Below, in pieces: positions 19,133 to 44,624 of a DNA stretch of 64,000 nt. The notes below the pieces were generated by a model. The model was not told the origin of the DNA, made no database searches, and was given only the letters and a program-made list of their open reading frames with translations. The DNA is from Lachnospiraceae bacterium (lineage in GTDB: Bacteria > Bacillota > Clostridia > Lachnospirales > Lachnospiraceae). The position numbers and the translations under genes are program-made. The stretch's first letter is position 1, and every line of letters starts with the position of its first letter. The DNA lies in assembly GCA_024692955.1 (NCBI GenBank), contig JAILLW010000044.1, positions 7,027-71,026 on the forward strand, given 5' to 3'.

Positions 19133-19138
19133 GTCTTG

Positions 19139-20806: not shown

Positions 20807-20856
20807 AGCATTCACCGTCTTTCCGCAGTCGAATAAAAGACTGCTCCGTATTCATG

Positions 20857-21027: not shown

Positions 21028-22956
21028 TCAGACGCCCGTATTCAGGATCAGCTGGTCATAGATCTCCGTGAGAGTCTGGATCATCTTGGAAGCCAGCGTG
21101 TAATTATTCTGGTATTTCACGAGACTCACAGCCTCTTCGTCCTCATCCACGCCGGAGATGGAAGTCCTCTGGTTGTCGATGGAATTCTTCAGCCCTTCGT
21201 AGGTGGTCTTATAGACATCCGCGTTGGATTTGTTGAGGGCCACATCCGAGATCAGGATCTCCAGCATCTGGTTCGCGGGAGCGTTCCGGAAACTGAACTT
21301 GCTCTTCGTGGTCAGGGTGTCGATGACTTCCTTGATCTGCTCACACTCTTCCACACCCACATGCGGGTTGGACCGGGAGCCGAGAAGATCCGCGTCGTTA
21401 AGGAGGGCATCCGTTACGCTGACGGTTCCGGCAGTCATATAATAGTATCCGTACTTATCCGTCTCCAGCTCCTTATAGCTCACTTCCTCGCCGATCTTCC
21501 GGCAGGCGAACAGGTTCGTTCCGGGGTCTCCGTAGGCGTTGGTAGCCACTACCGGTGCTCCGTCGACGGCCTTTCCGGTGGAAGGATCCTGCCCGGCCGT
21601 CAGAATGCCGTTGATCTTGTCCGTGAAGGAGCGGAGGAACGCGCTCATCTGGGTCATATAATAAGGGATACCCTGATAAGCCAGCGCTTCCTGGGTCTTG
21701 ACCTGATCGTTCACCGTGATCTCTCTCGAGGAGCCCTTCTCCGGATCCAGGGTGAATTTGTAGGCTTCCACGACTCTCTGGCCGTTTTCGTCAAGCACAT
21801 AATCCGAACCGTCCATCTCATAGACCGGCTCCCACTCATCATAGTAATATACCGCATTGCCGATGGTGATCTCGCCCTGGGAGGGAAGGTTGCAGTCAAT
21901 GAGCGCCTTCAGATAATCATCGCTCACGCCCACCGTGACCGTCTGCTTCGTCACGGCGTCCGCTCCGTCACCTACGGTAACACTTCCTTTCTCCCTGACC
22001 TTTCCGTTGAAGTTCTGGCCGTTGTTTCCGTCCCGAAGATCCACGAGGCCGCGGAGCTTTCCGTTCAGGGCGGCATTGTTCAGATTAAACTCGTTTCCGT
22101 TGCCCCACTTGATCTTGTAAAGGCCGTCCACGTCGGTCTGGTTCAGACCTTCGTCATTCGCCCTTGCCACGCAGGAGAGCTCATCATAATCGTTTCCGTC
22201 AACCAGGAGCTGTCCGCCCGCGATCTTGACCACATAGCGGGTTCCGCCGGTCTCTCTCGTCGGATCGTTCGTATCGTAGATCGGGGTCTCCCGGATCTCC
22301 ACGTCCACATATTCGGAAAGGCGGTCGATCAGAAGATCCCGCTGGTCCCGGAGGTCGTTGGCGATCCCGCCGGAAAGCTCGATGACGTTGATCTGCTTGC
22401 TCAGGGTAGCCACCTGCGAGGAAATGGAATTGATCTGGTCCACGCACTGCTTGATCTCGAGGTTGATATCCTTCTGGACCTCCTGAAGATTGCCGTACAT
22501 GCTGTTGAAATAATCGGTGAGAGCCTGCACGGAGGCAACGAAATTCGCCTTCGTGGAGGTCGTGCTGGCGTCCTTCGTAACCTCCTGAAGGGCATCCCGC
22601 ATCTTATTGAAGATCGTTACGAAACCGCTGGTTCCGTCATCATTGAAATAATCCTCGATCTCACGGTCGTAATAGTCCTTGATATTGTACTGACCGTAAT
22701 TTGCGTGGTTATCCCAGAATTTCACGTCATAAAAGCTGTCGCGCACACGCTCGATGGAAAGGGTCTCGACTCCGGCGCCGGCGCAGCCGTAGGTCGCGAA
22801 TACACGAAGGGCGTCCGCCGCCTGGGAATCCACTTTCTGGCGGGAATACCCGTCGGTCTGCACGTTCGAGATGTTGTTTGCCGTCGTATTCAGGGCCGCA
22901 TTCGCGTTCCGAAGTCCGCTGCCCGCTATGGATAATCCGAAAAACTGTGAAGGCAT
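21028..22956 (-). CDS. flgK: Flagellar hook-associated protein 1 FlgK (paralogue 2)
   Basis: 642 aa. N-terminus FGLSIAGSGLRNANAALNTTANNISNVQTDGYSRQ. C-terminus ISGVDEDEEAVSLVKYQNNYTLASKMIQTLTEIYDQLI. Confidence 0.85.
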   Translation of the reverse strand: MPSQFFGLSIAGSGLRNANAALNTTANNISNVQTDGYSRQKVDSQAADALRVFATYGCAGAGVETLSIERVRDSFYDVKFWDNHANYGQYNIKDYYDREIEDYFNDDGTSGFVTIFNKMRDALQEVTKDASTTSTKANFVASVQALTDYFNSMYGNLQEVQKDINLEIKQCVDQINSISSQVATLSKQINVIELSGGIANDLRDQRDLLIDRLSEYVDVEIRETPIYDTNDPTRETGGTRYVVKIAGGQLLVDGNDYDELSCVARANDEGLNQTDVDGLYKIKWGNGNEFNLNNAALNGKLRGLVDLRDGNNGQNFNGKVREKGSVTVGDGADAVTKQTVTVGVSDDYLKALIDCNLPSQGEITIGNAVYYYDEWEPVYEMDGSDYVLDENGQRVVEAYKFTLDPEKGSSREITVNDQVKTQEALAYQGIPYYMTQMSAFLRSFTDKINGILTAGQDPSTGKAVDGAPVVATNAYGDPGTNLFACRKIGEEVSYKELETDKYGYYYMTAGTVSVTDALLNDADLLGSRSNPHVGVEECEQIKEVIDTLTTKSKFSFRNAPANQMLEILISDVALNKSNADVYKTTYEGLKNSIDNQRTSISGVDEDEEAVSLVKYQNNYTLASKMIQTLTEIYDQLILNTGV

Positions 22957-22967
22957 AGGGTCTCTCC

Positions 22968-24764
22968 TTATCTTCCGAGGGTGGTGAGGATGTGCTCGAT
23001 CATCTCGTTAATGGCATTTACATATCTGCTGGATGCGTTAAACGCGTTCTGGAACTGGATCATGTTCGAAAGCTCCTCATCCGAGGATACTCCGAGGATC
23101 TCCTCCCGGGCGCTTCGGATATTGGTCACCGTAATGGTCTGGTTCGCGGAGATCCCGCGCATCACATAGCCGGTATTGGACACCTGGGAGATCAGGTTAT
23201 TGTAATAGTTCGTAAGGTTCGTCGTGGTCCGTACATCCGGATTCAGGGTATAGATCTCGCTTGCGAAAACGGACTTTAAGGCATCGCCTATGAACTCGTG
23301 ATCCGCCTTGCCGTCCGGACGGATGAAGCCCAGCAACGAGGGGGCCTTTCTCAGAGTCTCGTTGATCTTCACATTCGTTGTCGTAAAGCCCGGGCCGTCT
23401 GCCGAATCGTCCGTCATATTGAACATGGTATAAGGCTTTCCCGTGGCGGGGTCCACCAGATAGCCGTCGGCGTCAAAGGAAGGCTCGTTTCCGCCGCCGT
23501 CCAGCCATTTCCCGGTATCGGGATCCTTCGTATAGGTCGCGGAACCGTCTTTGCTCCTTATCTGATAGGTTCCGTCGGGAAGATCTTCCTTTATGCAGCC
23601 GTTTCCGAAAAGGGCCGCCTCGTAGAGGACGCTGTTGATCCCCGTGGTCACCTGATTCACAAGCTTGTCGAATTCGGCCATAACATTCATCACGACGGAA
23701 TCCTTGATCTTCGCATAGGCCTTCGCATCCAGCGCATCCTTCTCGGCCTGTGTCGCTCCCGGAGGATAATCCGAAGGATCCGCCTTCATATCCGCGAAGG
23801 TCGTCCGCCTGTCACCTCTTGCGAGCAGAAGCCCCTTCAGGGAACCGATATCCGTATTCATGTCGCTGGAGATCTCGCGGTCCATATTGAAGACACGCCC
23901 GATGATGTTTCCGTTGGCATCCGCCGTCGGATTACCGTCCGCGTCGTATTTTGCCAGCATCTTCCAGTAGGGCGTGTAGAAACCGGTCACGGGATCGGTA
24001 TAGATCTCCAGTTCCTTGACGCTTCCCACGTTCACGAAATCAACGCCTTCGATCTGGATCAGATAATTGCCGTCTACGTCCGTATCGAGCGTGATGTTCG
24101 CGATCTCGGAAAGCTCGTCAACCAGACGGTTTCTCTCATCGTTAAGGTCATTCGCGTGCTCGACCTCGCCGGCCTCGATCTTCAGGATCGCCTGGTTCAC
24201 CTCGTCGATGCGCCTTCCGATCTCGTTGATGCGGTCCGTCTTCTGTTTTACGTCGAAATTCAGATCGTCCTGATAGGTCGCCAGATCATCATAGACCAGC
24301 CGGGAACGGTTGATGAACTCGTTGCAGCGCTGTACCAGAACGCCCTGGTTTACCGTATTGGAAGGATCCTTCGCGATCTCCTCCACGGATTCCCAGATGT
24401 TCTTCAGCGTATCTGCGAACGCTTCCCCGTCCAGCTCCTGAAAGATCTCCTCCACCTCTTCGATGGCATCGCAGGAGATATTGTAGAAACCTTCCCTGCC
24501 GTGCTCCCGGCGGTAGGATTTGTCCAAAAAATAATCCCGAACCTGCGCCACCTCGGCGAATTTCACGCCGAGCCCCACCTGCTGATAAGCATTGGCGGAC
24601 GCCGATTTCGAGATCGTATTGTAAAACCGGGTCGACTGCCTTACCTGCTGACGTGTGTAGCCTTCGGTGTCCACGTTCGTCATATTGTGCGCCACGGTGT
24701 TCAGCGCGTTCTGTGATGTCTGTAAGCCGCTGGCTCCTACATAAAGGCTGCCGAAAATACCCAT
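22968..24764 (-). CDS. flgK: Flagellar hook-associated protein 1 FlgK (paralogue 1)
   Basis: 598 aa. N-terminus LYVGASGLQTSQNALNTVAHNMTNVDTEGYTRQ. C-terminus GVSSDEELSNMIQFQNAFNASSRYVNAINEMIEHIL. Confidence 0.85.
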   Translation of the reverse strand: MGIFGSLYVGASGLQTSQNALNTVAHNMTNVDTEGYTRQQVRQSTRFYNTISKSASANAYQQVGLGVKFAEVAQVRDYFLDKSYRREHGREGFYNISCDAIEEVEEIFQELDGEAFADTLKNIWESVEEIAKDPSNTVNQGVLVQRCNEFINRSRLVYDDLATYQDDLNFDVKQKTDRINEIGRRIDEVNQAILKIEAGEVEHANDLNDERNRLVDELSEIANITLDTDVDGNYLIQIEGVDFVNVGSVKELEIYTDPVTGFYTPYWKMLAKYDADGNPTADANGNIIGRVFNMDREISSDMNTDIGSLKGLLLARGDRRTTFADMKADPSDYPPGATQAEKDALDAKAYAKIKDSVVMNVMAEFDKLVNQVTTGINSVLYEAALFGNGCIKEDLPDGTYQIRSKDGSATYTKDPDTGKWLDGGGNEPSFDADGYLVDPATGKPYTMFNMTDDSADGPGFTTTNVKINETLRKAPSLLGFIRPDGKADHEFIGDALKSVFASEIYTLNPDVRTTTNLTNYYNNLISQVSNTGYVMRGISANQTITVTNIRSAREEILGVSSDEELSNMIQFQNAFNASSRYVNAINEMIEHILTTLGR

Positions 24765-27493: not shown

Positions 27494-29320
27494 CTACTCA
27501 ACCGTGACGGACTTCGCGAGGTTTCTCGGCTTGTCCACATCATTTCCCTTGCCCACCGATACATAATAGGCAAAGAGATGAAGCGGGATGATGGCGAGAG
27601 AATTCGTGAAATACCGGTTCGTCAGCGGGATATAGATCACATAATCGGCGACCTTCTCGATATCCGGATGCCCGGCGTTCGTAAGAGCCAGAACGAAGGC
27701 TCCCCTGGATTTCACCTCCACGATGTTGCTTACCGTCTTCGCATAGAGATCCTCCTGGGTCAGTGCCGCCATTACGAGCGTCCCCTCCTCGATGAGCGAG
27801 ATCGGTCCGTGTTTCAGTTCGCCGGCCGCATAGGCCTCGGAATGAAGGTAGGAAATCTCCTTCAGTTTCAGAGAACCCTCCATGGAAAGCGAGTAATCGA
27901 GCCCGCGTCCGATGAAAAAGATGCTCTTCGCCGCCAGATAACGGTTCGCAAAGCGCTGGATCCTCTCCTTGTTCGAAAGCAGCATCTCGATCTGCTCGGG
28001 AAGCTTTTTAAGATCCCTGAGAAGCTGCTGGTATTCCTTCCCGTCGATGGTGCCTCTTATATCCGAAAAATACATTGCGATGAGATACAGGGCGATAAGC
28101 TGGGCGGAATAGGCCTTGGTCGATGCCACCGCGATCTCGGGGCCCGCCCAGGTATACATGACGCTGTCCGCCTCGCGGGCGATGGAAGATCCGACCACGT
28201 TCACGATCGCAAGCACCGTTGCCCCCTTCTCCCTGGAATTCCGGAGCGCCTGCAGGGTATCCGCGGTCTCCCCGGACTGCGAGATCACGATCACGAGCTC
28301 ACCTTTCTCGATGATCGGGTTCCGATAGCGGAATTCGGATGCCATATCGACTTCCACCCGAAGCCTTGCCATCCGTTCGATAATGTATTTGGCCGCGACT
28401 CCGGCGTGGTAGGCCGTGCCGCAGGCAACAATGTGAATCCTCTTCAGATCCCGGATCTCTTCTTCGGAGAGCTTCAGTTCATCGAGCACGATCCGGTCTC
28501 CGCAAAGATGCTTTTCATAGGTCTCCCGGACGGCTTTCGGCTGTTCGTGCATCTCCTTCATCATGAAATGCTCGTAGCCGCCCTTCTGCACCGCCTCGAC
28601 GTCCCAGTCGATATGCGTGGATTCCTTCGGGATCTCTTCCTCATCCACGTTGTAGAACGTCAGCCGGTCCTCTTTCAGCATGACCACTTCCTGGTTCTCG
28701 ATGAAGTAGACATCCCGCGTATATTTCAGGATTGCCGGCACATCCGAGGCAATGAAGCACCCTTCGTCATTCTGTCCGACGACGAGCGGGCTGTCCTTCC
28801 TTACCGCATAGAGCGTATCCGGATGATCCGAGAAAAGGATCCCCAGTGCATACGAGCCTTCCACGCGGTGCATGACCTTTGTGATCGCCTCGAGCGGGTT
28901 TCCCTTATAATAATAATCCGTCAGATGGGCAAGCACCTCCGTATCCGTTTCGGAGCGGAATTCATATCCCTTCCTGACCAGCTTTTCCTTGATCTTCCGG
29001 TAGTTTTCGATGATCCCGTTGTGTACGACGGCGATCGTTTCATCCTTATTGAAATGAGGATGGGCGTTGATGTCCGTGGGCTGCCCGTGCGTGGCCCAGC
29101 GTGTATGTCCGATCCCGGAGGTCCCGGGCACTGTCTGTCCGTCGTGGGTAAGCTCCTCCAGCGCCTTCAGCCGCCCCGCCGTCTTTACGATATTGATCCT
29201 TGTTCCGTCAAAGACCGCCAGTCCGGCGGAGTCATACCCCCGGTATTCCAGCTTGTCCAGCCCGTCCAGAAGGATCGGCGCCGCCTGACGTTTTCCTATA
29301 TATCCGACAATTCCGCACAT
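27494..29320 (-). CDS. glmS: Glutamine--fructose-6-phosphate aminotransferase
   Basis: 608 aa. Reads MCGIVGYIG (N-terminal nucleophile Cys), has two SIS domains and ends ...NLAKSVTVE. Confidence 0.95.
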   Translation of the reverse strand: MCGIVGYIGKRQAAPILLDGLDKLEYRGYDSAGLAVFDGTRINIVKTAGRLKALEELTHDGQTVPGTSGIGHTRWATHGQPTDINAHPHFNKDETIAVVHNGIIENYRKIKEKLVRKGYEFRSETDTEVLAHLTDYYYKGNPLEAITKVMHRVEGSYALGILFSDHPDTLYAVRKDSPLVVGQNDEGCFIASDVPAILKYTRDVYFIENQEVVMLKEDRLTFYNVDEEEIPKESTHIDWDVEAVQKGGYEHFMMKEMHEQPKAVRETYEKHLCGDRIVLDELKLSEEEIRDLKRIHIVACGTAYHAGVAAKYIIERMARLRVEVDMASEFRYRNPIIEKGELVIVISQSGETADTLQALRNSREKGATVLAIVNVVGSSIAREADSVMYTWAGPEIAVASTKAYSAQLIALYLIAMYFSDIRGTIDGKEYQQLLRDLKKLPEQIEMLLSNKERIQRFANRYLAAKSIFFIGRGLDYSLSMEGSLKLKEISYLHSEAYAAGELKHGPISLIEEGTLVMAALTQEDLYAKTVSNIVEVKSRGAFVLALTNAGHPDIEKVADYVIYIPLTNRYFTNSLAIIPLHLFAYYVSVGKGNDVDKPRNLAKSVTVE

Positions 29321-29334
29321 GGTATCTTTCCTCC

Positions 29335-30279
29335 TTAGCCTTCATCCCCTTTTTCCGGGTGAAGGAGTCTTCCCCTGATCCACAGGGGTAGTTTATCATA
29401 TCTTTCCCCCAAAGTGTAGCCCGCGTATTTGCAGGCGCTCTGCCAGATGAGTGGTATGAGCATGAATATCAGTCCTTTTTTGCAAAGCCGCTCCGCCGTC
29501 TTTTTCACAAGCCGCATCCCTTCACCGGAAGCCTTCACATCCGAAAAGGTCTCCGGATGGTCCGCATGGGAAACTCCGTTCTGAAAGTTCCGTCGGAACT
29601 GCTGCGCTCCCGTATAGCTGTGAGAGTGAAATACCTTCGCCTCCGCACGGTAGGCGATCAGCTTTTTGTCATTGATCAGCTTTCGCGCGTAGATCATATC
29701 CTCATTAAAGGAAACGTGAGCCGGGAAGCCTCCGAGTTCGTCAAAGAAGGACCTCCGGTACATACAGCATACATTGGAGGCAAAAAAGGCTTTGATCCCG
29801 AGACGTTCAAGATCCCCGGCACCTTTTTTCAAAGAGACGGGCGGATAGTTGAAGTGCCTCGTATATTTTTCGATAACACCCGCTCTTTTATTGGCGATCT
29901 GCCTTGCGTAGGCCATCCCCACCTCCGGGTCCTCAAAGGCTTCAAGAAGATTTCCGATAAGATCCGGATCCGCCGGCACCGCGTCATCCGTCATGAGAAG
30001 AAAGAAAGGGCTCTTCGAGAGCGAAACGCCGAAATTCCTGGTCCCGCCGTGGTCAAAGTCTTCCTTTTCGATATGATGAACCTCCAGAAACGGATAACGG
30101 GCGCAGACATCATAGGAGGAAAAAAACTTCTCCCAATGCTCGCGCCCTGTATTGATCACGATGACCCTGCCTGCCGGAACCTTTGAGCGTTCCAGCATAA
30201 GCAGGGTCGTCAGCAGCTTTTCTGTTGGTCTGTATACCGGGATGATCACATCCACCGGTTCCGGATGGGTCTTCGTCAT
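29335..30279 (-). CDS. Glycosyltransferase family 2
   Basis: 314 aa. Reads VDVIIPVYRPTEKLLTTLLMLERS...VIVINTG...LLMTDDAVP. It ends 14 nt before the glmS start. Confidence 0.75.
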   Translation of the reverse strand: MTKTHPEPVDVIIPVYRPTEKLLTTLLMLERSKVPAGRVIVINTGREHWEKFFSSYDVCARYPFLEVHHIEKEDFDHGGTRNFGVSLSKSPFFLLMTDDAVPADPDLIGNLLEAFEDPEVGMAYARQIANKRAGVIEKYTRHFNYPPVSLKKGAGDLERLGIKAFFASNVCCMYRRSFFDELGGFPAHVSFNEDMIYARKLINDKKLIAYRAEAKVFHSHSYTGAQQFRRNFQNGVSHADHPETFSDVKASGEGMRLVKKTAERLCKKGLIFMLIPLIWQSACKYAGYTLGERYDKLPLWIRGRLLHPEKGDEG

Positions 30280-31637
30280 TTCACATATTGCGAGGTCTCG
30301 GACCTGATCTTGTCGCTGTAGGCTTTGACCGAACTCGAAGGCTCATAGGTGGGATCCTCGAACATGAATTCATGGAGCCATACCACATTTTCATAAAGAT
30401 CGGCAGGCACCACACAGGAGCCTTTCTTTCCGATGGTTCCGGTCTTCAGAAGGTCCTCTCTCGGGAAGCCGGTTTCTCCCACGACTTCGTACTTGCTGAT
30501 ATTTCCCAGCACTTCGATGATGTCCTCAAGATCCAGGGAGGTGTAGGTCTTTTCAAAGACCTTTGTCGCGATCTCGGAAAGCTTCGCGGGAGATGCTTTC
30601 TTCGCCTTGTCCAGGCAGGCAAGGAGTACGTCCCTCTGCCTCTGGGTCCTTTCAAAATCGCTCCCCACATAGCGGATCCGGCAGTAGGCCGTGGCCTGCA
30701 GACCGTTCAGGGTCTGAAGTCCCGCGCTCTTTACCGGGATGTAATCGGAGCCCTCGTTGGCGGTGAAATGCTCACCGTCGCTGGATTTACCCACCATACT
30801 GATCTGGTAGTTGTTAAGATGTATGATCTCGCTTTCCTTTACATTGATCTCCACGCCGCCCAGAGCGTCGATCGTCTCCCTTAAGCCCTCAAAGCCCACG
30901 GTGATGAAATCCGTGACATTGAGATCCAGGTTCATGTTCAGCATATTAATCGCCTGCTTCGGGCCTCCCTTGGCATAGGCGGCATTGCACTTGTTGTAGC
31001 TGTCGTTGCTGAGGTTCAGGAAGGTGTCGCGGTATACGGAAACCAGTCTGCATTCCCCGGTATCCATATTTATGGATGCGATCATGATCGTATCGGATCT
31101 TGTATTTTTCGTCAGAGCACCCTCACGGGAGTCCACACCGAAAAGCGCGATATTCCGGTAGCCCTTCATCGCGGATACGCTCTCCGCTCCGTCACCGCTT
31201 GTAGCGGTCAGTTTCTCTTTCAGCTCCTCGTTGATCACGATATCGTCCACGTCCAGTTCGACCTTGCCGACCTTCTCCGTTTTCAGAACGGACCAGAGGA
31301 AAACTCCCATCGCCACAAGGGCCGCGATCTCAACCACGAAAAGAATGATCTTTCCGGGAGTGATCTTTTTCTTTGCGGACGCGGGGCGGGGTCTTTTTCC
31401 GCCGGACGCGGGCCGTCCCTGAGGGCGGGGTCTTGCGCCCGAGCCTCCGGATGATCCTTCACGGGCACGGGCCGAAGCGGCCGCGGCACGACGCTCTTCC
31501 GGTCCGGGGGCTTTTCTTCTTTCTTCCGCTCCCTGCGGACGGGGTCTTGCTCCCTGAGGACGCCTTGCGCCGGATACCCCTTTTTGAAGCTGTCCCCGGG
31601 AAGATCCGCCCGGGCTTCTTCTGTTCTCCTGATCCAT
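30276..31637 (-). CDS. LytR-CpsA-Psr (LCP) family glycopolymer-to-peptidoglycan ligase with an Arg/Pro/Gly-rich cytoplasmic tail
   Basis: 453 aa. Reads NIALFGVDSREG...RSDTIMIASINMDTGECRLVSVYRDT. The N-terminal ~95 aa are low complexity (GARPRPQG appears twice), followed by one TM helix. Confidence 0.85.
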   Translation of the reverse strand: MDQENRRSPGGSSRGQLQKGVSGARRPQGARPRPQGAEERRKAPGPEERRAAAASARAREGSSGGSGARPRPQGRPASGGKRPRPASAKKKITPGKIILFVVEIAALVAMGVFLWSVLKTEKVGKVELDVDDIVINEELKEKLTATSGDGAESVSAMKGYRNIALFGVDSREGALTKNTRSDTIMIASINMDTGECRLVSVYRDTFLNLSNDSYNKCNAAYAKGGPKQAINMLNMNLDLNVTDFITVGFEGLRETIDALGGVEINVKESEIIHLNNYQISMVGKSSDGEHFTANEGSDYIPVKSAGLQTLNGLQATAYCRIRYVGSDFERTQRQRDVLLACLDKAKKASPAKLSEIATKVFEKTYTSLDLEDIIEVLGNISKYEVVGETGFPREDLLKTGTIGKKGSCVVPADLYENVVWLHEFMFEDPTYEPSSSVKAYSDKIRSETSQYVK

Positions 31638-31669
31638 TTGTTTCCGTCTCCTTAAAGTTTATTCCCGTT

Positions 31670-33016
31670 TCAGGCCAGATGCCCCTGCGCACTGATCACA
31701 TCGATCACGCTGTCGACATAATTTTCGCAGATCTCATCGCTTCCGGCTTCGACCATGACCCGGATCACCGGTTCGGTACCGCTCTCGCGCACCAGGATCC
31801 TTCCTTCGTCGCCGAGCGCTTCCGCCACGGCCGCCACGGCCTTCTGAACCTCGGGATCGTTCTGCGCCTCAGGCTTGCTCTTCACACGGACATTCTTCAG
31901 CACCTGGGGATAGAATACCACGGGAGCAGCCAGTTCGCTCATCGGCTTTTCCTTCGCAAGCATGACTTCCATCAGCTTCAGCGAGGTCAGGATCCCGTCT
32001 CCGGTGGTCTCGTATTTCGAAAAGATGATATGGCCGCTCTGCTCGCCGCCGATCCGGTTGCCCGTCTGAACCATGTTCTCATAAACATACTTGTCGCCGA
32101 CTTTGGTCTTCTCATATTCGATCCCGACTTTGTCGAGGGCCTTGTAGAGGCCGAAATTGCTCATTACCGTCGTAACAACCTTATTGTTCAGAAGCTTGCC
32201 TCTTTCTTTCATATACAGGCCGTAGATATAAAGGATGTGATCCCCCGTCACCACATTGCCCTTTTCATCGACCGCAAGACAGCGGTCCGCATCTCCGTCA
32301 TAGGCAAAGCCGATATCCAGGCCCTTTTCCGTGACGAATTTCTGAAGATGCTCAATGTGGGTGGAGCCGCAGTCCGTATTGATATTGTAGCCGTCGGGGC
32401 TGTCGTTCATTACGTAAGTCTTGGCACCGAGCGCGTCAAAAACGCCCTTTGCGATCTGCCAGGCCGCGCCGTTCGCGACATCCAGGCCAACCTTTACGTC
32501 CTTGAAGCTGTACTTGGACATGGAGATGAGGTAGCCGATATAGCGGTTCCGGCCTGCCACATAGTCCACCGTGCGGCCGATCTTATCCCGTTCCGCCACC
32601 GGAATCTCAGTCTTTCCGTCGATATAATCCTCGATCTTCAGGATCGTCTCCTCGTCCATCTTCTCGCCGCTTCCGTTCAGAAGTTTGATCCCGTTGTCAT
32701 AATAGGGATTGTGGGACGCGGAAATCATGATGCCGCAGTCAAAATCATCCACGCGCGTGATATAGGAAACGGAAGGCGTCGTCGTAACGTGCATGATATA
32801 CGCATCCGCACCGGAAGCCATAAGCCCCGTGCAGAGCGCGTACTCGAACATATAGCTTGAGCGCCTTGTGTCCTTTCCGATCACGATCTTCGCGTTCTTT
32901 CCTTCCCTTGCCCCGTAATACCAGCCGAGATACCGGCCGATTTTGATCGCGTGTTCAAATGTCAGATTCCTGTTTGCTTCGCCGCGGAAGCCGTCTGTTC
33001 CGAAATATTTACCCAT
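31670..33016 (-). CDS. glmM: Phosphoglucosamine mutase
   Basis: 448 aa. Motifs YFGTDGFRG, SASHNPYYDNGIK, AYDGDADR and GGEQSGH. Confidence 0.9.
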   Translation of the reverse strand: MGKYFGTDGFRGEANRNLTFEHAIKIGRYLGWYYGAREGKNAKIVIGKDTRRSSYMFEYALCTGLMASGADAYIMHVTTTPSVSYITRVDDFDCGIMISASHNPYYDNGIKLLNGSGEKMDEETILKIEDYIDGKTEIPVAERDKIGRTVDYVAGRNRYIGYLISMSKYSFKDVKVGLDVANGAAWQIAKGVFDALGAKTYVMNDSPDGYNINTDCGSTHIEHLQKFVTEKGLDIGFAYDGDADRCLAVDEKGNVVTGDHILYIYGLYMKERGKLLNNKVVTTVMSNFGLYKALDKVGIEYEKTKVGDKYVYENMVQTGNRIGGEQSGHIIFSKYETTGDGILTSLKLMEVMLAKEKPMSELAAPVVFYPQVLKNVRVKSKPEAQNDPEVQKAVAAVAEALGDEGRILVRESGTEPVIRVMVEAGSDEICENYVDSVIDVISAQGHLA

Positions 33017-33674
33017 TCTCTCTTTTCCTCACTGTTTCTCCGTTGTTCTTGTAGATGGAATCCGCCGGTACCACACCCCGCACGCAGGACGTGGGATAGA
33101 TGTTGGAATTTCTCCCCACTACGGTTCCGGGATTGCAGACGGAATTGCAGCCGACCTCCACATGATCTCCGAGCATTGCGCCGAATTTCTTAATGCCGGT
33201 CTCCACTTCTTCCGTTCCGTTATGCACGACTACGAGCTGCTTGTCCGATTTCACATTGGATGTGATGGAGCCGGCTCCCATGTGCGAATAATATCCGAGG
33301 ATCGAGTCCCCGACATAGTTGTAATGCGGTGTCTGAACATGATCGAAGAGGATCACATTCTTAAGCTCCACGGAATTCCCGACCACGCAGTTTGCGCCGA
33401 CGAGAGCCGAGCCGCGGATGAACGCGCAGTGCCGTACTTCCGTCTCGGGCCCGATGATGCAGGGTGCGCCGAGGTAGGCCGAGTCAAATACCTTTGCGGT
33501 CTTGTGGACCCAGACATGCTCCGAGCGCTCCTCATAGTCGTCTCCGAGGGTGGGTCCGAGCGCAAGGATCAGGTCCTTGATCCCCTTCAGCGCCTCCCAG
33601 GGATAGGTAAACTGCAAAAGATAATCTTTTGCCAGAGTATGATCGAGATCATACAGATCTTTTATCGTATACAT
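33009..33674 (-). CDS. Left-handed beta-helix protein resembling the acetyltransferase (C-terminal) half of GlmU
   Basis: 221 aa. Hexapeptide turns (IGPETEVRHCAFIRGSALVGANCVVGNSVELKNVIL...GDHVEVGCNSVCNPGTVVG). There is no nucleotidyltransferase domain. It sits between nagB and glmM. Confidence 0.6.
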   Translation of the reverse strand: MYTIKDLYDLDHTLAKDYLLQFTYPWEALKGIKDLILALGPTLGDDYEERSEHVWVHKTAKVFDSAYLGAPCIIGPETEVRHCAFIRGSALVGANCVVGNSVELKNVILFDHVQTPHYNYVGDSILGYYSHMGAGSITSNVKSDKQLVVVHNGTEEVETGIKKFGAMLGDHVEVGCNSVCNPGTVVGRNSNIYPTSCVRGVVPADSIYKNNGETVRKRENG

Positions 33675-33675
33675 C

Positions 33676-34467
33676 CTAAAGCCTCTCTTTCTTTTCGATA
33701 TCCAGGAAGTATTTGTAGGTATCCACGGTCAGCTCGCCGCAGGCCTCCTCATCGCAGGCGATGATGGCGCCGTTGTGCATCTGGAGCGCGGAACAGGTCC
33801 ACTTCTGGCTGACAGCACCCTCTACGGTCGCCGCAAGGGCTCTTGCCTTGTTGTGCCCGGAAATGAGGACCAGTACCTCTCTGGAATCCGTGACGGTCCC
33901 GATCCCTACGGAAAGTGCCTTCGCGGGAACCTTCTCCGGGTCGTTTCCGAAAAACCGGCTGTTGACGATCCTGGTATCCGTGGTAAGATCACGTACTCCG
34001 GTGCGCGAGGAAAGGCTCGTGTACGGCTCGTTAAACGCCAGATGACCGTCCACGCCGATGCCGCCCATGAAGAGATCGATGCCGCCGTAGGAAGCGATCT
34101 TCTCCTCATATCTTCTGCACTCGCCCTCCGGATCGTCCGTCATGCCGTTCAGAATGTTGATGTTTTCCGGCTTCATGTCCGTCAGATGATCGAAAAGATT
34201 GTCATGCATGAAATACCAGTAGCTCTGGTCGTGCTCTCTGGGGAGCCCGAGATATTCATCCATGTTAAAGGTCACTACATCAGCAAAAGAAAGCTCGCCC
34301 GCCTTATTCATGCGGACAAGCTCTTTATACACTCCGATGGGCGATGAACCGGTGGGAAGTCCCAGAACGAACGGACGGTCTTCCCTGTGTCCGTTGATCT
34401 TTCCGGCGATATAGGCTGCCGCCCATTTGCACATTTTGTCGTAGTTGTCCTGTATCACAACTCTCAT
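33676..34467 (-). CDS. nagB: Glucosamine-6-phosphate deaminase/isomerase
   Basis: 263 aa. Motifs LGLPTGSSPIGVY, FNMDEY and GIGVDGHLAFNEP. Confidence 0.9.
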   Translation of the reverse strand: MRVVIQDNYDKMCKWAAAYIAGKINGHREDRPFVLGLPTGSSPIGVYKELVRMNKAGELSFADVVTFNMDEYLGLPREHDQSYWYFMHDNLFDHLTDMKPENINILNGMTDDPEGECRRYEEKIASYGGIDLFMGGIGVDGHLAFNEPYTSLSSRTGVRDLTTDTRIVNSRFFGNDPEKVPAKALSVGIGTVTDSREVLVLISGHNKARALAATVEGAVSQKWTCSALQMHNGAIIACDEEACGELTVDTYKYFLDIEKKERL

Positions 34468-34504
34468 GATCGTGTCTCCTTTTCATGTGATAATGATCCG
34501 CAGA

Positions 34505-34640
34505 AACGGAAGAAGCTTTGTTACAGTGTCGATTCTGCTTTTTGCCTTCTTCCTCACGACCTCTGCCTTGGCCGCAGCAGCATCCGCCGAGTCTTTCGAT
34601 CGCTGCTGTCCTCGTCAACCGGTTCCGGTCCAGGCGCTAA
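34505..34640 (-). ncRNA. glmS ribozyme: glmS ribozyme (GlcN6P-dependent self-cleaving riboswitch)
   Basis: The minus strand reads UUA|GCGCCUGGACCGGAACCGGUUGACGAGGACAGCAGCGAUCGAAAGACUCGGCGGAUGCUGCUG...GGAAGAAGGCAAAAAGCAGAAUCGACACUGUAACAAAGCUUCUUCC. All elements I recall as conserved are present: the A|GCGCC cleavage site, a P1 hairpin, GACGAGGA, AUCGAA, CGGCGGAUGC and a P4 stem with AACAAAG. The boundaries are approximate. Confidence 0.85.
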
Positions 34641-34688
34641 CATGGCCCCTTTGTCCTCCTTTGCGGGAATCATGTTTTACAGGACAGA

Positions 34689-34717
34689 ATGATACAATAA
34701 TAATTGTTATTTTGCAA
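34689..34717 (-). promoter_or_regulatory. Candidate sigma-A promoter TTGCAA-17-TATCAT driving the ribozyme-led operon
   Basis: Read on the minus strand: -35 at 34717-34712 and -10 at 34694-34689, with TG just upstream of the -10. About 45 nt upstream of the ribozyme cleavage site. Confidence 0.5.
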
Positions 34718-34722
34718 GTGCT

Positions 34723-36132
34723 TCAGTATGCGTTCTTGTTGATGAACCCGCGGAAGAAAGTCAGAAACATGATCTTCAGATCCCATGCATAATTCCAGTT
34801 TTCGATATAGTAAAGATCATACTCCACCCTTTTACGGATCGAAGTATTTCCGCGGTAGCCGTTGATCTGCGCCCATCCGGTGAGTCCGGGGCGGACAAGA
34901 TGCTTGATGTTGTAGCGCGGGATCTCTTCCTTGAATTCCTCAACGAACTGCGGTCTCTCCGGGCGCGGCCCCACCAGAGACATCTCGCCGATGAGGATAT
35001 TGAAAAGCTGGGGAAGCTCATCCAGTGAGGTCTTTCGCATAAAACGTCCGGCTTTCGTCACCCGGGGATCGTCCTTCGTGGTCCAGGCCTTTTCCTCCTC
35101 GGCCGACTTCTGGATCTTCATTGTCCGGAACTTATACATCATAAAGGGCTTGTTGTGGAGCCCGATCCGCTCCTGTTTGAAGATCACGGGGCCTTCGCTG
35201 GAAGCCTTGACCGCGATGGCACAGGCCAGCATGATGGGGGATGTGATGATGATCCCCGCAAGGGCGCCGATGATATCCGTCATCCGCTTCATGAACAGGT
35301 TCACCGCGTTGTTCAGAGGAACATAGCGGATATTGATGACCGGGAGCCCGAGCACGTCCTCCGTATAGGGACGGGAGGGCACGAGGGAGCTGTAGTCCGG
35401 AATGAATTTCGTATGCACACCGAACTTTTCGCAAAGATCCACGATCCCTTCCAGTTTGTCATAATCCTTAAGGGCCAGAGTGATGGCCACCTCGTCCAGT
35501 TTGTTTTCCGGCAATATATAACGCACGTTATCTATGCTGCCTACCACCTTGACGCCCTTATAGACAGTGCCCCGGGGGATTGTATCGTCCAGGATCCCGC
35601 GGACGGAATAGCCCCACTGGGGATTCTGATTGATCCTCGTGATATATTCCTCCGCCGCCCTCGAATAGCCGATGAGCAACACATGCTTGACATTGTAGCC
35701 CTTTCTGCGGATGAACTGGAGCATATTCCGGATCACGGTGCGTACCAGCGTGGTCAGCAGGATATTGATGATAAAGAAGATCCCCAGCATGGGACGGGAC
35801 ATATCGTCCAGCTTGATGATGTAGAGTACCACGAAGACAAGGAGCAGCCCCACCGTGTTCGCCTTCAGGATCGCGAAGATTTCGTAGCGGCGCATGGTGG
35901 CACGCTTCGCGGCGTACATATTGAACATGTAATAGAGGATGATATAGGCGGGAACAAGGAACCAGAGCGCCCTGAAATAGATCTCCCTCTCAAGCACGCC
36001 CACTACGGAGCCTTTGGTATAAAGCCCCGTTCCGAACCAGACATACCACGCAAGAAGATAGGACACCACGATCACGATGGCGTCCAGTACCAGATGCAGA
36101 CGGTTCAGGATCTTCTGATTATCCTTGATCAT
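34723..36132 (-). CDS. Polyprenyl-phosphate glycosyl-1-phosphate transferase (WcaJ/EpsL-type priming sugar transferase)
   Basis: 469 aa. N-terminal TM helices, then PVIFKQERIGLHNKPFMMYKFRTMK...DDPRVTKAGRFMRKTSLDELPQLFNILIGEMSLVGPRPERP. Confidence 0.9.
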   Translation of the reverse strand: MIKDNQKILNRLHLVLDAIVIVVSYLLAWYVWFGTGLYTKGSVVGVLEREIYFRALWFLVPAYIILYYMFNMYAAKRATMRRYEIFAILKANTVGLLLVFVVLYIIKLDDMSRPMLGIFFIINILLTTLVRTVIRNMLQFIRRKGYNVKHVLLIGYSRAAEEYITRINQNPQWGYSVRGILDDTIPRGTVYKGVKVVGSIDNVRYILPENKLDEVAITLALKDYDKLEGIVDLCEKFGVHTKFIPDYSSLVPSRPYTEDVLGLPVINIRYVPLNNAVNLFMKRMTDIIGALAGIIITSPIMLACAIAVKASSEGPVIFKQERIGLHNKPFMMYKFRTMKIQKSAEEEKAWTTKDDPRVTKAGRFMRKTSLDELPQLFNILIGEMSLVGPRPERPQFVEEFKEEIPRYNIKHLVRPGLTGWAQINGYRGNTSIRKRVEYDLYYIENWNYAWDLKIMFLTFFRGFINKNAY

Positions 36133-36159
36133 TCGCTGTCCCAGCCTTAAGTATCAGTG

Positions 36160-37137
36160 TCAAGCCGCAAGGAACCGGATCAGGTTCAGATACAGCATAA
36201 GCTGGATCGCGGCATAGGTTTTCAGTCTTTCTTTTCTGAATCTTATTTTATGTCTGCGCCCGCCTTTTGTAAAGCAGAGGGCGAAGCCTTCCCTCAGTCC
36301 TTTCAGATAGCTTCCGCCCAGTCCTTTCCTTATAAAAAAGAACGTCTTAATAAGGAAACCGGGGATCAGGAAGGGGAGGTTCAGGAGGATCTGGAACGCC
36401 GGCATGTTCTTGTAGATAAGATAGATATTGTTTCTCGCGGAAAGACGCACCTTGAAATCATTGTAACGTGAACCGGAGGATGCGCTTCCTTCATGGAGCA
36501 CGACGGCATCCTTGATCACATAGTTCTCATAGCCGCGGATCCTGGCCCGGTAGCCGATATCCACGTCCTCAAGATATGCAAAATGTCCTTCATCGAACCA
36601 GCCGATCTCATCCAGGATCTTTCTGCTGTAAAGAGCAGCTCCGGCGCAGGAGGAAAAGATCCTTCTCCTTGAGGTATAGCGTTCAAAGTCAGCGGCATCC
36701 CGGTCCTTTCCGAGCGCAAACGCCCAGCCGGCCGCGCAGTAGAAATCTCCTGCGGAATCCACTCGCTTTTCATCCGACATCCGGAGCATCAGTGCCTGAC
36801 AGGAAAAGGTCCGGGGATTCTTCCTCATTTCCTTAAGGAGCCTCCTTATGGTATCGGGGCGGACCAGAGTGTCATTGTTAAGAAGAAAGATATAGGGTGC
36901 CTCCGAAAGCGCGATCCCCGCGTTTACCGCGGCGGAAAAGCCTTTGTTTTCCGGAAAGCAGACCAGTTTCACCGAGGGAAATTCCTTCCGGACGAGTTCT
37001 TCCGAGCCGTCCGTGGAGCCGTTGTCGACCACAATGATCTCCGCCTCCGTATCGGAAGCGAGCACACTCTTCAGACAGTTTTCAAGATAGCGGATCCCGT
37101 TCCAGTTCGGGATCACCACGGTTACGGCTTTCTGCAT
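36160..37137 (-). CDS. Glycosyltransferase family 2
   Basis: 325 aa. Reads VTVVIPNWNGIRYLENCL...IIVVDNGSTDGS...LLNNDTLV. Confidence 0.85.
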   Translation of the reverse strand: MQKAVTVVIPNWNGIRYLENCLKSVLASDTEAEIIVVDNGSTDGSEELVRKEFPSVKLVCFPENKGFSAAVNAGIALSEAPYIFLLNNDTLVRPDTIRRLLKEMRKNPRTFSCQALMLRMSDEKRVDSAGDFYCAAGWAFALGKDRDAADFERYTSRRRIFSSCAGAALYSRKILDEIGWFDEGHFAYLEDVDIGYRARIRGYENYVIKDAVVLHEGSASSGSRYNDFKVRLSARNNIYLIYKNMPAFQILLNLPFLIPGFLIKTFFFIRKGLGGSYLKGLREGFALCFTKGGRRHKIRFRKERLKTYAAIQLMLYLNLIRFLAA

Positions 37138-38555
37138 AGGATCATCTCCGGATCATAAATAAAATGACAGCCTTTTTCTCTCATTATATCACAAAAGCGA
37201 AAGCTTAAGAGCCTCCGGTCAAGAGGAGCGCACGAGCGGGAATTCTCCTCTTTCAGGGTCTTCAGGATCTTCGCCGCCTGATGAATATCCTTCCCCTCTT
37301 CCGGAAAGCACATGCATTCGGTATCCAGGTAAGGAACCTCCATCTTGCAGGCTGCCCGGTGGAGATAGCCTCCGGAATGGCGTTCATCAAGTCCTTCAAA
37401 GAGCAGCTTTTTGTTTTCATTATAGGCGCCGCCGGCAACCTTCCCGTCCCGGTCAAGGATCCTTCCGCCCACTGCGCAGATATCGGACCGGTAGGTAAAG
37501 ACGTCCGGCCGGTATTCCACATCGAAGAAACCCATATGCGGAGTTCTCCGGACAATGATCGCGGGAGTGCATCCGGCAGGGGTCTTCCTTCCGGTTTCCG
37601 TGATCACCTCCGCACCCTTCGCGAAAGTGGTCCGGATAAAATCCGCTACGGCTTCCTGCCCCCTGTCGTAGGCATAGGACTTGCTCTTCGGATTCGCTGC
37701 AGTGGAGGCGTCATGGCATCTCCAGTGATAGAGGACCTTTCCGATATGAAAGATCTCTTTTTCATACCCTGCCCCGGAACGTTCCATCAGGGTATGCACC
37801 GTCCTCAGGATCAGATCATGATCCTGGGCTCCGTCAAACTCCTTTCGAAGCTTCATTTCCTTCAGAAGTCCCGTCTCCAGCACCAGAAAATGACAGATGT
37901 AATTATTCGACAAAATTAAATCGAGATTGAATTTCGGCTTTTCGTTGATTTCGAAGAAATCCTTATTTTCCGAGTCTGTTTTGTCTTCGTCGGAGTATAA
38001 CGCCTGTAATTTTATACCCTCGTTCTTCGCTTTTTCGATGGCCTTTGCCATCTCGTAAAGGGCATCCACCGTCAGCAGGTCGTCATGATCGAGAAGACCC
38101 GTATAATCGCCGGTGCAAAAGGCAAGTCCTCCGTTGGTATTCTCCGAGATCCCCCCGTTTTCCGGAAGTTTCACATAGCGGATCCGGATGTCATCATAGG
38201 ATCCGGCAATATTCTTGACCGTATCGGTCAAAGACGCGTCCGCAATGATAAGCTCCCACTTCGGATAGGTCTGTTCCCGTACGGAATCGATCATCTCCCG
38301 CAGATAGGTCTCCGGAGTTTCAAAGGCGGGCACAAGGATACTGAAGGCGGTGTGAAAGGAAAGCCCGTCCTCAAGCTGACGGAGCCGCTCCTCCTCCGAT
38401 ACGGGCACATAGGTATAAGGGGGAAGTTTTTTCTTCTCCCAAAGTCTTTCCCGGATGGCATAAAATGTCTCGACCGGTCCGTTTCTTTTCAGATAGTTCA
38501 GTGTTTTTCCTATGTTCCCGTTCATATCAGGATCCTGTCTCTTTCCGGTTTGCAC
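37122..38555 (-). CDS. Glycosyltransferase family 2 (long form)
   Basis: 477 aa. Reads FSILVPAFETPETYLREMIDSVREQTYPKWELIIADAS...GLLDHDDLL. Confidence 0.8.
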   Translation of the reverse strand: MQTGKRQDPDMNGNIGKTLNYLKRNGPVETFYAIRERLWEKKKLPPYTYVPVSEEERLRQLEDGLSFHTAFSILVPAFETPETYLREMIDSVREQTYPKWELIIADASLTDTVKNIAGSYDDIRIRYVKLPENGGISENTNGGLAFCTGDYTGLLDHDDLLTVDALYEMAKAIEKAKNEGIKLQALYSDEDKTDSENKDFFEINEKPKFNLDLILSNNYICHFLVLETGLLKEMKLRKEFDGAQDHDLILRTVHTLMERSGAGYEKEIFHIGKVLYHWRCHDASTAANPKSKSYAYDRGQEAVADFIRTTFAKGAEVITETGRKTPAGCTPAIIVRRTPHMGFFDVEYRPDVFTYRSDICAVGGRILDRDGKVAGGAYNENKKLLFEGLDERHSGGYLHRAACKMEVPYLDTECMCFPEEGKDIHQAAKILKTLKEENSRSCAPLDRRLLSFRFCDIMREKGCHFIYDPEMILCRKP

Positions 38556-38587
38556 CCCGGGCTGTTTATCCTGAAGCAGACCTCCGG

Positions 38588-40309
38588 TCAGGCTATCTTC
38601 TTTACCGCTTCCGTCAGATTCTCCAGTCTTTTTTCGCCGTCTTCAAGGGAAGTTCCCCGGACACCCATATAAAACTTGATCTTCGGTTCCGTTCCGGAAG
38701 GCCGGACGCAGCACCAGGCATCCTCTTCAAGGTCAAAATAGAGCACGTTCGATACCGGAAGATCCGTATCCTTTTCACTGCCGTCCGAAAGATCCAGGAT
38801 CTTTCCCGTCTGATAATCCCGGAGAGAGAGCACCTTCAGGCCCCCGATCGTCCTGGGCGGATCCTTCCGGAGCTTTTCGAGGATCCCGCGGATCTTTTCC
38901 GCCCCGTCGATCCCCTTCAGGGTGATGGTATACTGGCCTTCCCGGTAGTAACCGTACTTTTCATACAGCGCGATCATCCGGTCCCAGAGGGTTTTCCCCT
39001 CTGCCTTCGCATGGCAGGCCGCCTCGCAAAGGCACATCACCGCGACCACGGCATCCTTGTCCCTCGCGTGGGTCCCCGCCAGGCATCCGTAGGATTCCTC
39101 AAGGCCGAAGACGTAATGATAAGTATCCTGCTCTTCGAAGAATTTGATCTGCTCCCCGATGTACTTAAAGCCCGTCAGCACTTCGATAAAGGTAAGCCCG
39201 TAGTCCTTCGCGACGGCCCTTGCCATATTCGTGGTAACGATGGTGGTAACAAGAGCCGGTGCCTCCGGCATGGTCTTTGTAAGAGTGCGCTCCCTCAGGA
39301 TATAGTCCGCGATGACCATCCCGGACATATTGCCGGTAAAAGGCATATATTCACCCGTATTCCGGTCAAGGGCGTAGATCCCCAGCCGGTCCGCGTCCGG
39401 ATCCGTGGCGAGCACAAGGTCCGCTCCCTTTTCCCGGGCCAGCTCAAGCGCAAGGGTAAAAGCCTTCGGATCCTCCGGATTCGGATAGGCAAGCGTCGTG
39501 AAATCCGGATCGGGCTCTTCCTGCTCAGGTACCACATACACCTTCGTGAACCCGAGTTCCGAAAGGATTCTTCGAACCGGCATGTTTCCGGCCCCGTGGA
39601 AGGGCGAATAGACGATCTTCAGTTCCTTCGCCTCTTTTTCGATCACTTCCGGATGGATGATCTGCTTTTTGAGTTCCTCCATATACCGGTCGTCGATCTC
39701 TTTTCCGATCACCAGATAAAGGCCTTTTCGGACCGCCTCGTCCCTGTCCATGGTCTTTGCGGCCTCGAAGCCGTCCACCGCCTTCACTTCCCGGATGATC
39801 TCGTCCGCGGTGGGAGAGGTCACCTGCGCGCCGTCCTCCCAGTAGACCTTGTAGCCGTTGTATTCCGGCGGATTATGGGAAGCCGTGATAACGATCCCCG
39901 CGGCCGCGTGAAGTTCTCTTAAGGCGAAAGAAAGCTCAGGTGTGGGGCGAAGGGCATCAAATACATAAGCCTTTATCCCGTTGGCATTGAGGCAAAGGGC
40001 CGCCACATCCGCGAATTCCGGGCTCATTCGCCGAGAATCAAAGGCGATCGCCACGCCTCTTCCTTCCATTCCCTTCTTCCTGATATACTCCGCAAGTCCC
40101 TGGGTGGCTTTTCTCACGGTATAGATATTCATCCGGTTCGTTCCGGCGCCCAGCACGCCGCGGAGGCCTCCCGTCCCGAATTCCAGTTCCCGGTAGAAAC
40201 GGTCTTCGATCTCCCTTTCATCTCCCTCGATGGATCTTAATTCCGCTTTGGTATCTTCATCAAAAAGGGGAGACGAAAGCCAGTGTTCATAGTTTTCACG
40301 ATAATTCAT
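38588..40309 (-). CDS. Phospho-sugar mutase (phosphoglucomutase/phosphomannomutase, PgcA-like)
   Basis: I chose the start at MNYRENYEHWL (ATG 40309), which shares one nucleotide with the TGA of the upstream gene (TGATG). Motifs ITASHNPPEYNGYK, ATDPDADR and GLEESYG. Confidence 0.85.
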   Translation of the reverse strand: MNYRENYEHWLSSPLFDEDTKAELRSIEGDEREIEDRFYRELEFGTGGLRGVLGAGTNRMNIYTVRKATQGLAEYIRKKGMEGRGVAIAFDSRRMSPEFADVAALCLNANGIKAYVFDALRPTPELSFALRELHAAAGIVITASHNPPEYNGYKVYWEDGAQVTSPTADEIIREVKAVDGFEAAKTMDRDEAVRKGLYLVIGKEIDDRYMEELKKQIIHPEVIEKEAKELKIVYSPFHGAGNMPVRRILSELGFTKVYVVPEQEEPDPDFTTLAYPNPEDPKAFTLALELAREKGADLVLATDPDADRLGIYALDRNTGEYMPFTGNMSGMVIADYILRERTLTKTMPEAPALVTTIVTTNMARAVAKDYGLTFIEVLTGFKYIGEQIKFFEEQDTYHYVFGLEESYGCLAGTHARDKDAVVAVMCLCEAACHAKAEGKTLWDRMIALYEKYGYYREGQYTITLKGIDGAEKIRGILEKLRKDPPRTIGGLKVLSLRDYQTGKILDLSDGSEKDTDLPVSNVLYFDLEEDAWCCVRPSGTEPKIKFYMGVRGTSLEDGEKRLENLTEAVKKIA

Positions 40310-44575: not shown

Positions 44576-44624
44576 CTTCGTTTTCCTCGAAATGAAAAGT
44601 TAAATCGAAAATATAGGTTTCCGC

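Follow-up and report, generated by a model that had tools for sequence, protein, structure and literature searches.

In the stretch of DNA considered here, 64,000 nucleotides of contig JAILLW010000044.1 from a Lachnospiraceae bacterium (the window, by which the whole 64-kb stretch is meant), a glmS ribozyme stands on the minus strand in front of nagB, and not in front of glmS. The Rfam scan placed a full-length match to the ribozyme family RF00234 at 34498-34649 (-), covering model positions 1-167 of 167 with 71.2 bits (E 2.3e-14), and this was the only copy in the window. The gathering score of the family is 37 bits. Cleavage is predicted between A34638 and G34637. An earlier description made from the letters alone (the sequence-only reading) had noticed a near-textbook core on the minus strand and had proposed an Infernal-type search with RF00234, which it passes with a score well above the gathering threshold. 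The core contains A/GCGCC (the stroke marks the cleavage site), GACGAGGA, AUCGAA, CGGCGGAUGC and AACAAAG; the letters expected of a family member (A/GCGCC, GACGAGG, AUCGAA and CGGCGGAUG) are present together with covarying helices, and the score extends over the full covariance model. Judged by its sequence, the RNA is a genuine member of the glmS ribozyme family, and the unusual part is its regulon. RF00234 usually occupies the leader of glmS, whereas here nagB comes first and the distance to glmS is 5.2 kb. Placement before glmS is a contextual habit of RF00234 rather than a structural property of it, and the family membership stands.

A promoter-like site, TTGCAA-17-TATCAT, was found upstream of the ribozyme at 34689-34717 (-), as the same description had stated; it agrees with the consensus in 9 of 12 positions and amounts to no more than a match to the consensus. 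From the end of the -10 element to the cleavage site there are 51 nt. The nagB ATG (34467) has the Shine-Dalgarno sequence AAGGAG 8 nt upstream.

The genes downstream, all on the minus strand, were identified with family models, which confirmed the order that had been read from the letters, with nagB and not glmS in first place. The first gene, nagB (33676-34467, 263 aa), matched TIGR00502 with 373 bits (cutoff 237). It is followed by a stand-alone acetyltransferase of the left-handed beta-helix (LbH) type (33009-33674, 221 aa), which matches the C-terminal half of archaeal-type GlmU, and by glmM for phosphoglucosamine mutase (31670-33016, 448 aa; TIGR01455, 545 bits, cutoff 448), whose reading frame overlaps that of LbH by 8 nt. 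Then come a LytR-CpsA-Psr (LCP) ligase joining glycopolymers to peptidoglycan (30276-31637, 453 aa, PF03816), a family 2 glycosyltransferase (GT2; 29335-30279, 314 aa, PF00535) and finally glmS for glutamine-fructose-6-phosphate aminotransferase (27494-29320, 608 aa; TIGR01135, 794 bits), in which the N-terminal MCGIVG is preserved. The spacing is as tight as had been claimed (32 nt or less, or overlapping), the gaps from the ribozyme to glmS being 32, 1, -8, 32, -4 and 14 nt; glmS, with only 14 nt in front of it, lacks a separate ribozyme. The statement that terminator hairpins are absent holds for the intergenic spacers of the string, in which no terminator-like hits were obtained on the minus strand; weak minus-strand hits are located inside coding sequence at 33313-33295, 30022-30010 and 29968-29953. 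Behind glmS there is a gap of 160 nt before htrA, in which no convincing intrinsic terminator was found.

Linkage of the ribozyme to nagB in related genomes

For a comparison across genomes, loci were anchored on NagB, with one genome per species, and the best 80 of at least 570 stretches encoding a relative were taken. In these 80 loci, NagB was 89–96% identical to the protein of the window; the further NagB relatives among the matches listed (120) were all 85–92% identical. The source records of the 80 loci are titled as rumen or gut Clostridia, namely metagenome-assembled genomes (MAGs) of Lachnospiraceae, Oscillospiraceae or Saccharofermentans and the isolates P7, YRB3002 and G41; the taxonomy of the clade is that given in the titles of the MAG records. 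With a ribozyme profile (nhmmer), a single copy was detected in 61 of the 80 loci, and in every case it stood immediately ahead of the nagB-containing cluster. When 18 related ribozymes, eight from these loci and ten from the metagenome sample described below, were re-checked with Rfam, all passed the gathering score, with 40–88 bits. In 36 of the 61 loci, a promoter-like site lies in the 130 nt that precede the cleavage site, compared with 8.4 expected from shuffled sequences.

Counting the window together with the 61 loci, 62 ribozyme-led operons were available for an analysis of the downstream chains. All 62 contain nagB, 43 contain glmM and 42 contain LbH; any other gene family occurs in four at most. 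The first gene behind the ribozyme is nagB in 43 operons, LbH in 18 and glmM in one, and the orders nagB-LbH-glmM, LbH-nagB-glmM, LbH-glmM-nagB, glmM-nagB and nagB alone were seen. Since the ribozyme has been kept while the gene order was shuffled, selection appears to act on the linkage of ribozyme and nagB. The GT2-glmS tail occurs in 4 of the 62 operons (the window, L002, L004 and L005) and the LCP gene in the window only, and 58 of the 61 ribozyme-nagB loci have no glmS in the operon. Thus, the conserved target of the ribozyme in this clade is nagB with LbH and glmM, and not glmS; glmS, LCP and GT2 are lineage-specific passengers of the operon. The sequence-only reading had suggested checking the synteny of the ribozyme in relatives and had inferred that one sensor would co-repress GlmS and its antagonist, with wall-polymer attachment also under metabolite control. 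The ribozyme-nagB pair recurs and the glmS tail is rare, so neither co-repression nor control of polymer attachment is supported as a general principle. The anatomy given in that reading, a ribozyme-headed string of about 7 kb from nagB to glmS in this genome, is right.

In four genomes (L006, L007, L019 and L026, of which L006 was re-checked), glmS is located immediately upstream of the ribozyme and therefore outside its control. An example is L006 (7138-12171), where LbH, nagB and glmM follow the ribozyme, as they do in the other three. The glmS of L006 has a promoter-like site of its own and no ribozyme, and between glmS and the ribozyme there is a TTGCAA-17-TATAAT sequence. No second ribozyme was found before the adjacent glmS in L006, L007, L016, L017, L019, L026 or L033, and Rfam scans of L006, L016, L017 and L033 at the gathering threshold agreed. 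Behind glmM, the loci L006, L007 and L026 contain a gene for a class IV adenylate cyclase (CyaB) and two more conserved genes. Three loci, L009 (5794-6738), L030 and L043, contain directly behind nagB a gene for YvcK/GlmR (TIGR01826, 268 bits), a regulator which binds UDP-GlcNAc (uridine diphosphate N-acetylglucosamine).

An estimate that did not depend on any gene was obtained by searching metagenome contigs for a core spelled GACGAGG-N9-12-TCGAAAGAYTCGGCGG, which yielded 120 ribozymes. The first gene downstream was glmS in 86 cases, nagB in 12, LbH in ten, glmM in one and another gene in three; eight contigs contained too little sequence. Overall, 23 of the 120 precede nagB, LbH or glmM. Among the ribozymes nearest to the profile of the clade, there were 23 before nagB, LbH or glmM versus three before glmS; the latter, L116, L171 and L185, are near relatives in the canonical position. 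The textbook arrangement is therefore dominant overall, with the nagB-type regulon as a coherent minority of considerable size.

Several loci of this sample deserve mention for themselves. In L098, LbH and glmM follow the ribozyme. In L104 (2268-4851), the ribozyme precedes glmS, which is followed by a 213-aa homologue with 46% identity to the LbH protein of the window, and because this gene follows glmS, a stand-alone acetyltransferase is tied to the GlcN6P (glucosamine 6-phosphate) pathway in an unrelated lineage as well. L088 (6016-10195) and L166 have a type III glutamine synthetase between ribozyme and glmS (ribozyme 60.7 bits; synthetase 698 aa, GSIII_N 222 bits), a further non-canonical operon, by which provision of the nitrogen donor is placed under the control of GlcN6P. 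L153 contains a ribozyme of the clade type (11061-11210, 63.7 bits) with no open reading frame of more than about 130 aa on the same strand in the 3.5 kb downstream; this copy is perhaps an orphan or a product of misassembly.

Conservation of the RNA was examined in an alignment of 30 related copies with 32 predicted pairs. The core blocks AGCGCC, GACGAGG, TCGAA and TCGGCGG were invariant across all 30, and compensatory double changes were present in 16 of the 32 pairs, in helices P1, P2.1, P3 and P4. This pattern of substitution indicates that the ribozyme is under selection in the context of the nagB operon. Insertions of about 45–60 nt occur in the P3 loop of L021, L050, L076 and L079; the Rfam scores of L050 and L076 are lowered to about 40 bits, just above the gathering score, and copies of this type could escape routine annotation.

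Codon positions 1, 2 and 3 of nagB showed identities of 0.92, 0.94 and 0.51 to the window, and glmM and LbH were similar. In the same loci, identities to the proteins of the window were 56–69% for GlmS, 54–56% for HtrA and 44–46% for GT2. These values indicate very strong purifying selection on nagB, like that on glmM, and point to deep divergence without recent transfer. A recent horizontal spread of a cassette was considered as the cause of the 89–96% identity of NagB and was rejected, as third codon positions are 42–60% identical and the gene order is permuted.

NagB and the direction of its reaction

The NagB protein of the window is a glucosamine-6-phosphate deaminase/isomerase of the Escherichia coli type, both by its TIGR00502 score and by its catalytic residues, with 56% identity to E. 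coli NagB. The catalytic residues D72, D141, H143 and E148 are conserved, and the alignment extends through the region of the C-terminal helix of the E. coli enzyme. The site at which N-acetylglucosamine 6-phosphate (GlcNAc6P) acts as allosteric activator consists of Tyr121, Asp141, Glu148, Ser151, Arg158, Lys160 and Tyr254 (PMC4281351). This site is not intact: Arg158 is replaced by Gly and Lys160 by Arg in all 80 NagB proteins, and Ser151 is replaced by Thr in every one examined, the motif variants all being EP[YF]TSL. Tyr121, Asp141, Glu148 and Tyr254 are retained in the window. The position after 160, which is presumably Thr161 in the numbering of E. coli NagB, is variable across the clade. 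The five closest NagB proteins of solved structure all keep the motif SRTRIKT.

The genomic surroundings likewise lack the catabolic context of nagB, since no NagA homologue was found within 10 kb of nagB in the 80 loci or in the 64-kb window. As a positive control, the NagA probe did detect a homologue in L106, the sole such locus among 201 sequences; there, nagA lies near a nagB of only 42% identity in a conventional catabolic neighbourhood, together with a canonical ribozyme-glmS unit.

The LbH protein matched positions 212-393 of the Arch_glmU model with 140 bits, below the cutoff for the full-length protein, and its best match in the PDB was the C-terminal domain of Sulfolobus tokodaii ST0452 (5z09/2ggo, residues 237-391, 78 bits). 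It is thus a homologue of the C-terminal domain of GlmU and ST0452; a fused uridylyltransferase domain is absent from its 221 aa, and models of full-length GlmU remained below their cutoffs. From this homology, the protein is predicted to be a GlmU-C-like glucosamine-1-phosphate N-acetyltransferase.

From context and sequence, the best explanation would appear to be that the NagB of this clade synthesises GlcN6P from ammonium and that the ribozyme exerts ordinary feedback repression on it; the probability of this reading is put at about 0.58. A biosynthetic role is suggested by the operon partners glmM, a GlmU-C-like acetyltransferase and sometimes GlmR, by the absence of nagA, by the loss of the activator site and by conservation at the level of housekeeping genes. 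Repression would be the expected mode in this group, given that close relatives of the ribozyme (L116, L171, L185) stand before glmS in the canonical manner. If NagB is biosynthetic, the paradox of co-repressing GlmS and the enzyme of the opposite reaction vanishes. The sequence-only reading had offered an anabolic NagB as a fallback, and the operon context, the lost R158 and the missing nagA now appear to favour it.

According to this scheme, a sigma-70-type promoter at about 34717-34689 would start a transcript with the ribozyme as its 5' leader. Abundant GlcN6P would cause self-cleavage between A34638 and G34637, and the downstream fragment, which carries a 5'-OH end, would presumably be degraded as in Bacillus subtilis. 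Cleavage would then lower the expression of nagB, LbH and glmM and, provided that a single transcript reaches glmS, also that of LCP, GT2 and glmS in the genome of the window. Control of the distal genes would probably be weaker, owing to their distance from the 5' end and to a possible internal promoter. In the aminating direction, NagB would convert fructose 6-phosphate (Fru6P) and NH4+ to GlcN6P, GlmM would make glucosamine 1-phosphate, and the LbH enzyme, if its predicted substrate is correct, would make N-acetylglucosamine 1-phosphate, toward UDP-GlcNAc. The route would be independent of glutamine and suited to an ammonia-rich habitat, and direct use of ammonia would spare ATP, because glutamine synthesis costs ATP. 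The rumen contains millimolar ammonia, and many rumen bacteria prefer ammonia as nitrogen source. In the genome of the window, a single sensor could in this way adjust the two routes to GlcN6P together with the two pathway steps that follow and part of a polymer pathway, which probably draws on the amino-sugar product.

Several observations weigh against this reading. The NagB enzymes that have been characterised show high Km values for both Fru6P and NH4+, and that of Akkermansia could not sustain synthesis of GlcN6P in physiological conditions (PMC5902328). Of the 81 genomes examined, at least 12 contain glmS, so that NagB is not the sole possible synthase. GlmM and LbH are consumers of GlcN6P, and their repression at high GlcN6P would not, taken by itself, be an obvious form of homeostasis. 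Inside GT2 there is a weak promoter-like site with 9 of 12 matches at 30136-30109 (-); a strong independent promoter before glmS had been named as the finding that would release glmS from the ribozyme, and on account of this weak site an internal start is possible which may uncouple the two. Finally, 16 of the 80 loci encode the same NagB (about 90% identity, with Gly158) and have no ribozyme according to Rfam, namely L017, L031, L033, L034, L040, L048, L051, L053, L054, L058, L061, L068, L069, L072, L074 and L080. Ribozyme control is accordingly not obligatory, as about 16 of 80 loci carry this NagB without it. In L017 and L033, glmS heads the cluster, again without a ribozyme. A divergent ribozyme was considered for the 19 loci without an nhmmer hit and was rejected for these 16, in which Rfam found none and the upstream gaps are mostly short (29–146 nt in 12 of the 16); the other three are cut too near to a contig end to be judged.

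Among the other explanations, the one that survives best regards NagB as a reversible valve co-expressed with the pathway, which equilibrates GlcN6P with Fru6P and NH4+ in a net direction set by the conditions, with GlmS, encoded locally or at another site of the genome, as the committed synthase. The reaction is reversible and its direction varies between organisms (PMC5902328, PMC4281351), and where glmS is present, in the 12 or more genomes already mentioned, it often adjoins the cluster. However, production of GlmS and NagB from one mRNA would, with net deamination, amount to a futile glutaminase cycle. The sensor moreover tracks nagB, as seen in the 23 clade-type ribozymes before nagB, LbH or glmM versus three before glmS, and glmS is outside ribozyme control in four genomes. 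The conservation of NagB (89–96%) also exceeds that of GlmS (56–69%) in the same loci. This explanation is considered rather unlikely.

Still less probable is a feed-forward arrangement, in which NagB would be catabolic and cleavage would stabilise or activate the mRNA, so that high GlcN6P would induce its own consumers. It would account for the fact that all three conserved genes encode enzymes using GlcN6P or its direct product. The fate of the 5'-OH product reportedly depends on the RNases of the host, the fragment being degraded by RNase J1 in B. subtilis and stable in E. coli (Collins et al. 2007), which would leave room for such a mechanism. Yet the same logic applied to the related ribozymes before glmS (L116, L171, L185) would lead to runaway positive feedback on the synthase, and glmS shares the operon in the window, L002, L004 and L005. 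If nagB were catabolic, nagA or transporters should be among its neighbours, whereas there is no nagA within 10 kb in the 80 loci, and the site for GlcNAc6P, the catabolic signal, is degraded in 80 of 80 NagB proteins. An accidental juxtaposition, by which the ribozyme would belong to glmS and nagB, LbH, glmM, LCP and GT2 would have been inserted between them without adaptive meaning, could be imagined from the terminal position of glmS in the window and from the canonical ribozyme-glmS units of relatives, but it is contradicted by the comparative data and hardly credible, since the linkage occurs in 61 of 80 species-level genomes, in 58 of the 61 without glmS in the operon, and survives permutations of gene order and divergence of synonymous sites to about 50% identity.

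The reading of NagB as a GlcN6P synthase can be extended to the clade as a whole: the glmS ribozyme would have been reassigned from glmS to nagB in a large and abundant clade, whose NagB, devoid of the allosteric site, would be the main housekeeping GlcN6P synthase and would use free ammonium in place of glutamine. In this wide form the proposal is tentative, with chances somewhat short of even.

Comparison with known systems

The canonical glmS ribozyme of B. subtilis and other Firmicutes belongs to the same RNA family and shares with the present RNA the core, the stems and the placement in a 5' leader downstream of a promoter of its own; for the present RNA, the same ligand (GlcN6P) and the same repression through cleavage and decay are presumed. 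The difference is that the leader of this clade precedes nagB, LbH or glmM, and that glmS is usually absent or located upstream. According to the census of McCown et al. 2011, all but two of 463 examples are said to be in glmS mRNAs. A survey of 2017 described the glmS ribozyme as regulating glmS (PMC5473149), and a review of 2019 stated that its RNA is found only in the 5' untranslated region of glmS mRNA (PMC6765202). Literature searches revealed no published description of a glmS-ribozyme regulon led by nagB, glmM or LbH. The nearest parallel is Faecalibacterium prausnitzii, where a ribozyme similar to that of hepatitis delta virus (HDV-like) is located upstream of glmM and was suggested to respond to a metabolite (PMC6765202). 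There, too, a self-cleaving RNA precedes a gene of the UDP-GlcNAc pathway other than glmS in a gut Clostridium; the ribozyme class and the first gene are different, the RNA of the present clade being a bona fide RF00234. What is new is thus the regulon and the anabolic NagB which it implies, the RNA itself being a normal family member.

For an anabolic NagB there are eukaryotic precedents. In Giardia and Entamoeba, which lack GlmS, NagB is the anabolic source of GlcN6P, and the enzyme of Giardia lamblia is not activated by GlcNAc6P, which was attributed to incomplete conservation of the allosteric residues of E. coli (PMC4281351). The likeness lies in a protein of the NagB fold that provides GlcN6P from ammonium for a wall polysaccharide, a role that is putative in the present clade. 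The differences are that those eukaryotes have no GlmS and control the enzyme transcriptionally at encystation, whereas here the organisms are bacteria, of which some keep glmS, and the control is by a ribozyme. E. coli NagB, a hexamer activated by GlcNAc6P and encoded in nagBACD, is of the same length class and has the catalytic residues in common; the NagB of the clade differs from it by R158G, K160R and S151T, is never found beside nagA and has biosynthetic partners in the operon.

If the proposed reading is true, this would be the first bacterial anabolic NagB and the first natural glmS-ribozyme regulon without glmS. The conserved regulon of nagB, glmM and LbH, usually without glmS, implies that the sensor is portable within the pathway and contradicts the textbook view of a ribozyme restricted to glmS; annotation that deduces glmS from the presence of the ribozyme will assign wrong labels in many genomes of the gut and rumen. 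The clade provides a testable candidate for ammonium-dependent GlcN6P synthesis in bacteria, which would parallel the choice between glutamate dehydrogenase and the glutamine synthetase-glutamate synthase route and would be sensible for energy-limited anaerobes in ammonia-rich guts. Antibacterial mimics of GlcN6P that are aimed at glmS ribozymes would silence a different and larger set of genes in these commensals.

Upstream cluster and other features

Upstream of the ribozyme and on the same strand, a glycopolymer cluster of the Wzm/Wzt ABC-transporter type occupies 34723-51617 (-). Its genes encode a GH25 muramidase with choline-binding repeat, an ABC-2 permease, the Wzt ATPase, a methyltransferase, four GT2 enzymes, a mutase of the PGM/PMM family and a WcaJ-like priming transferase, the gene of which stops 73 nt short of the ribozyme. 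In function, LCP and GT2 of the ribozyme operon probably belong to this cluster.

Other Rfam elements were detected in the flanks of the loci and are unrelated to the ribozyme: a raiA RNA in L080 (3825-3987), a T-box leader in L054 (19617-19859) and thiamine pyrophosphate (TPP) riboswitches in L031 (14647-14739) and L034 (12731-12819). The window itself contains a Clostridiales-1 RNA (RF01699) at 19012-19139 (-), which scores 92 bits (gathering score 48). It borders directly on a gene (19139-20815) for a protein with a flagellin N-terminal domain, and two tandem FlgK-like genes are located upstream of the RNA at 21028-22956 and 22968-24764.

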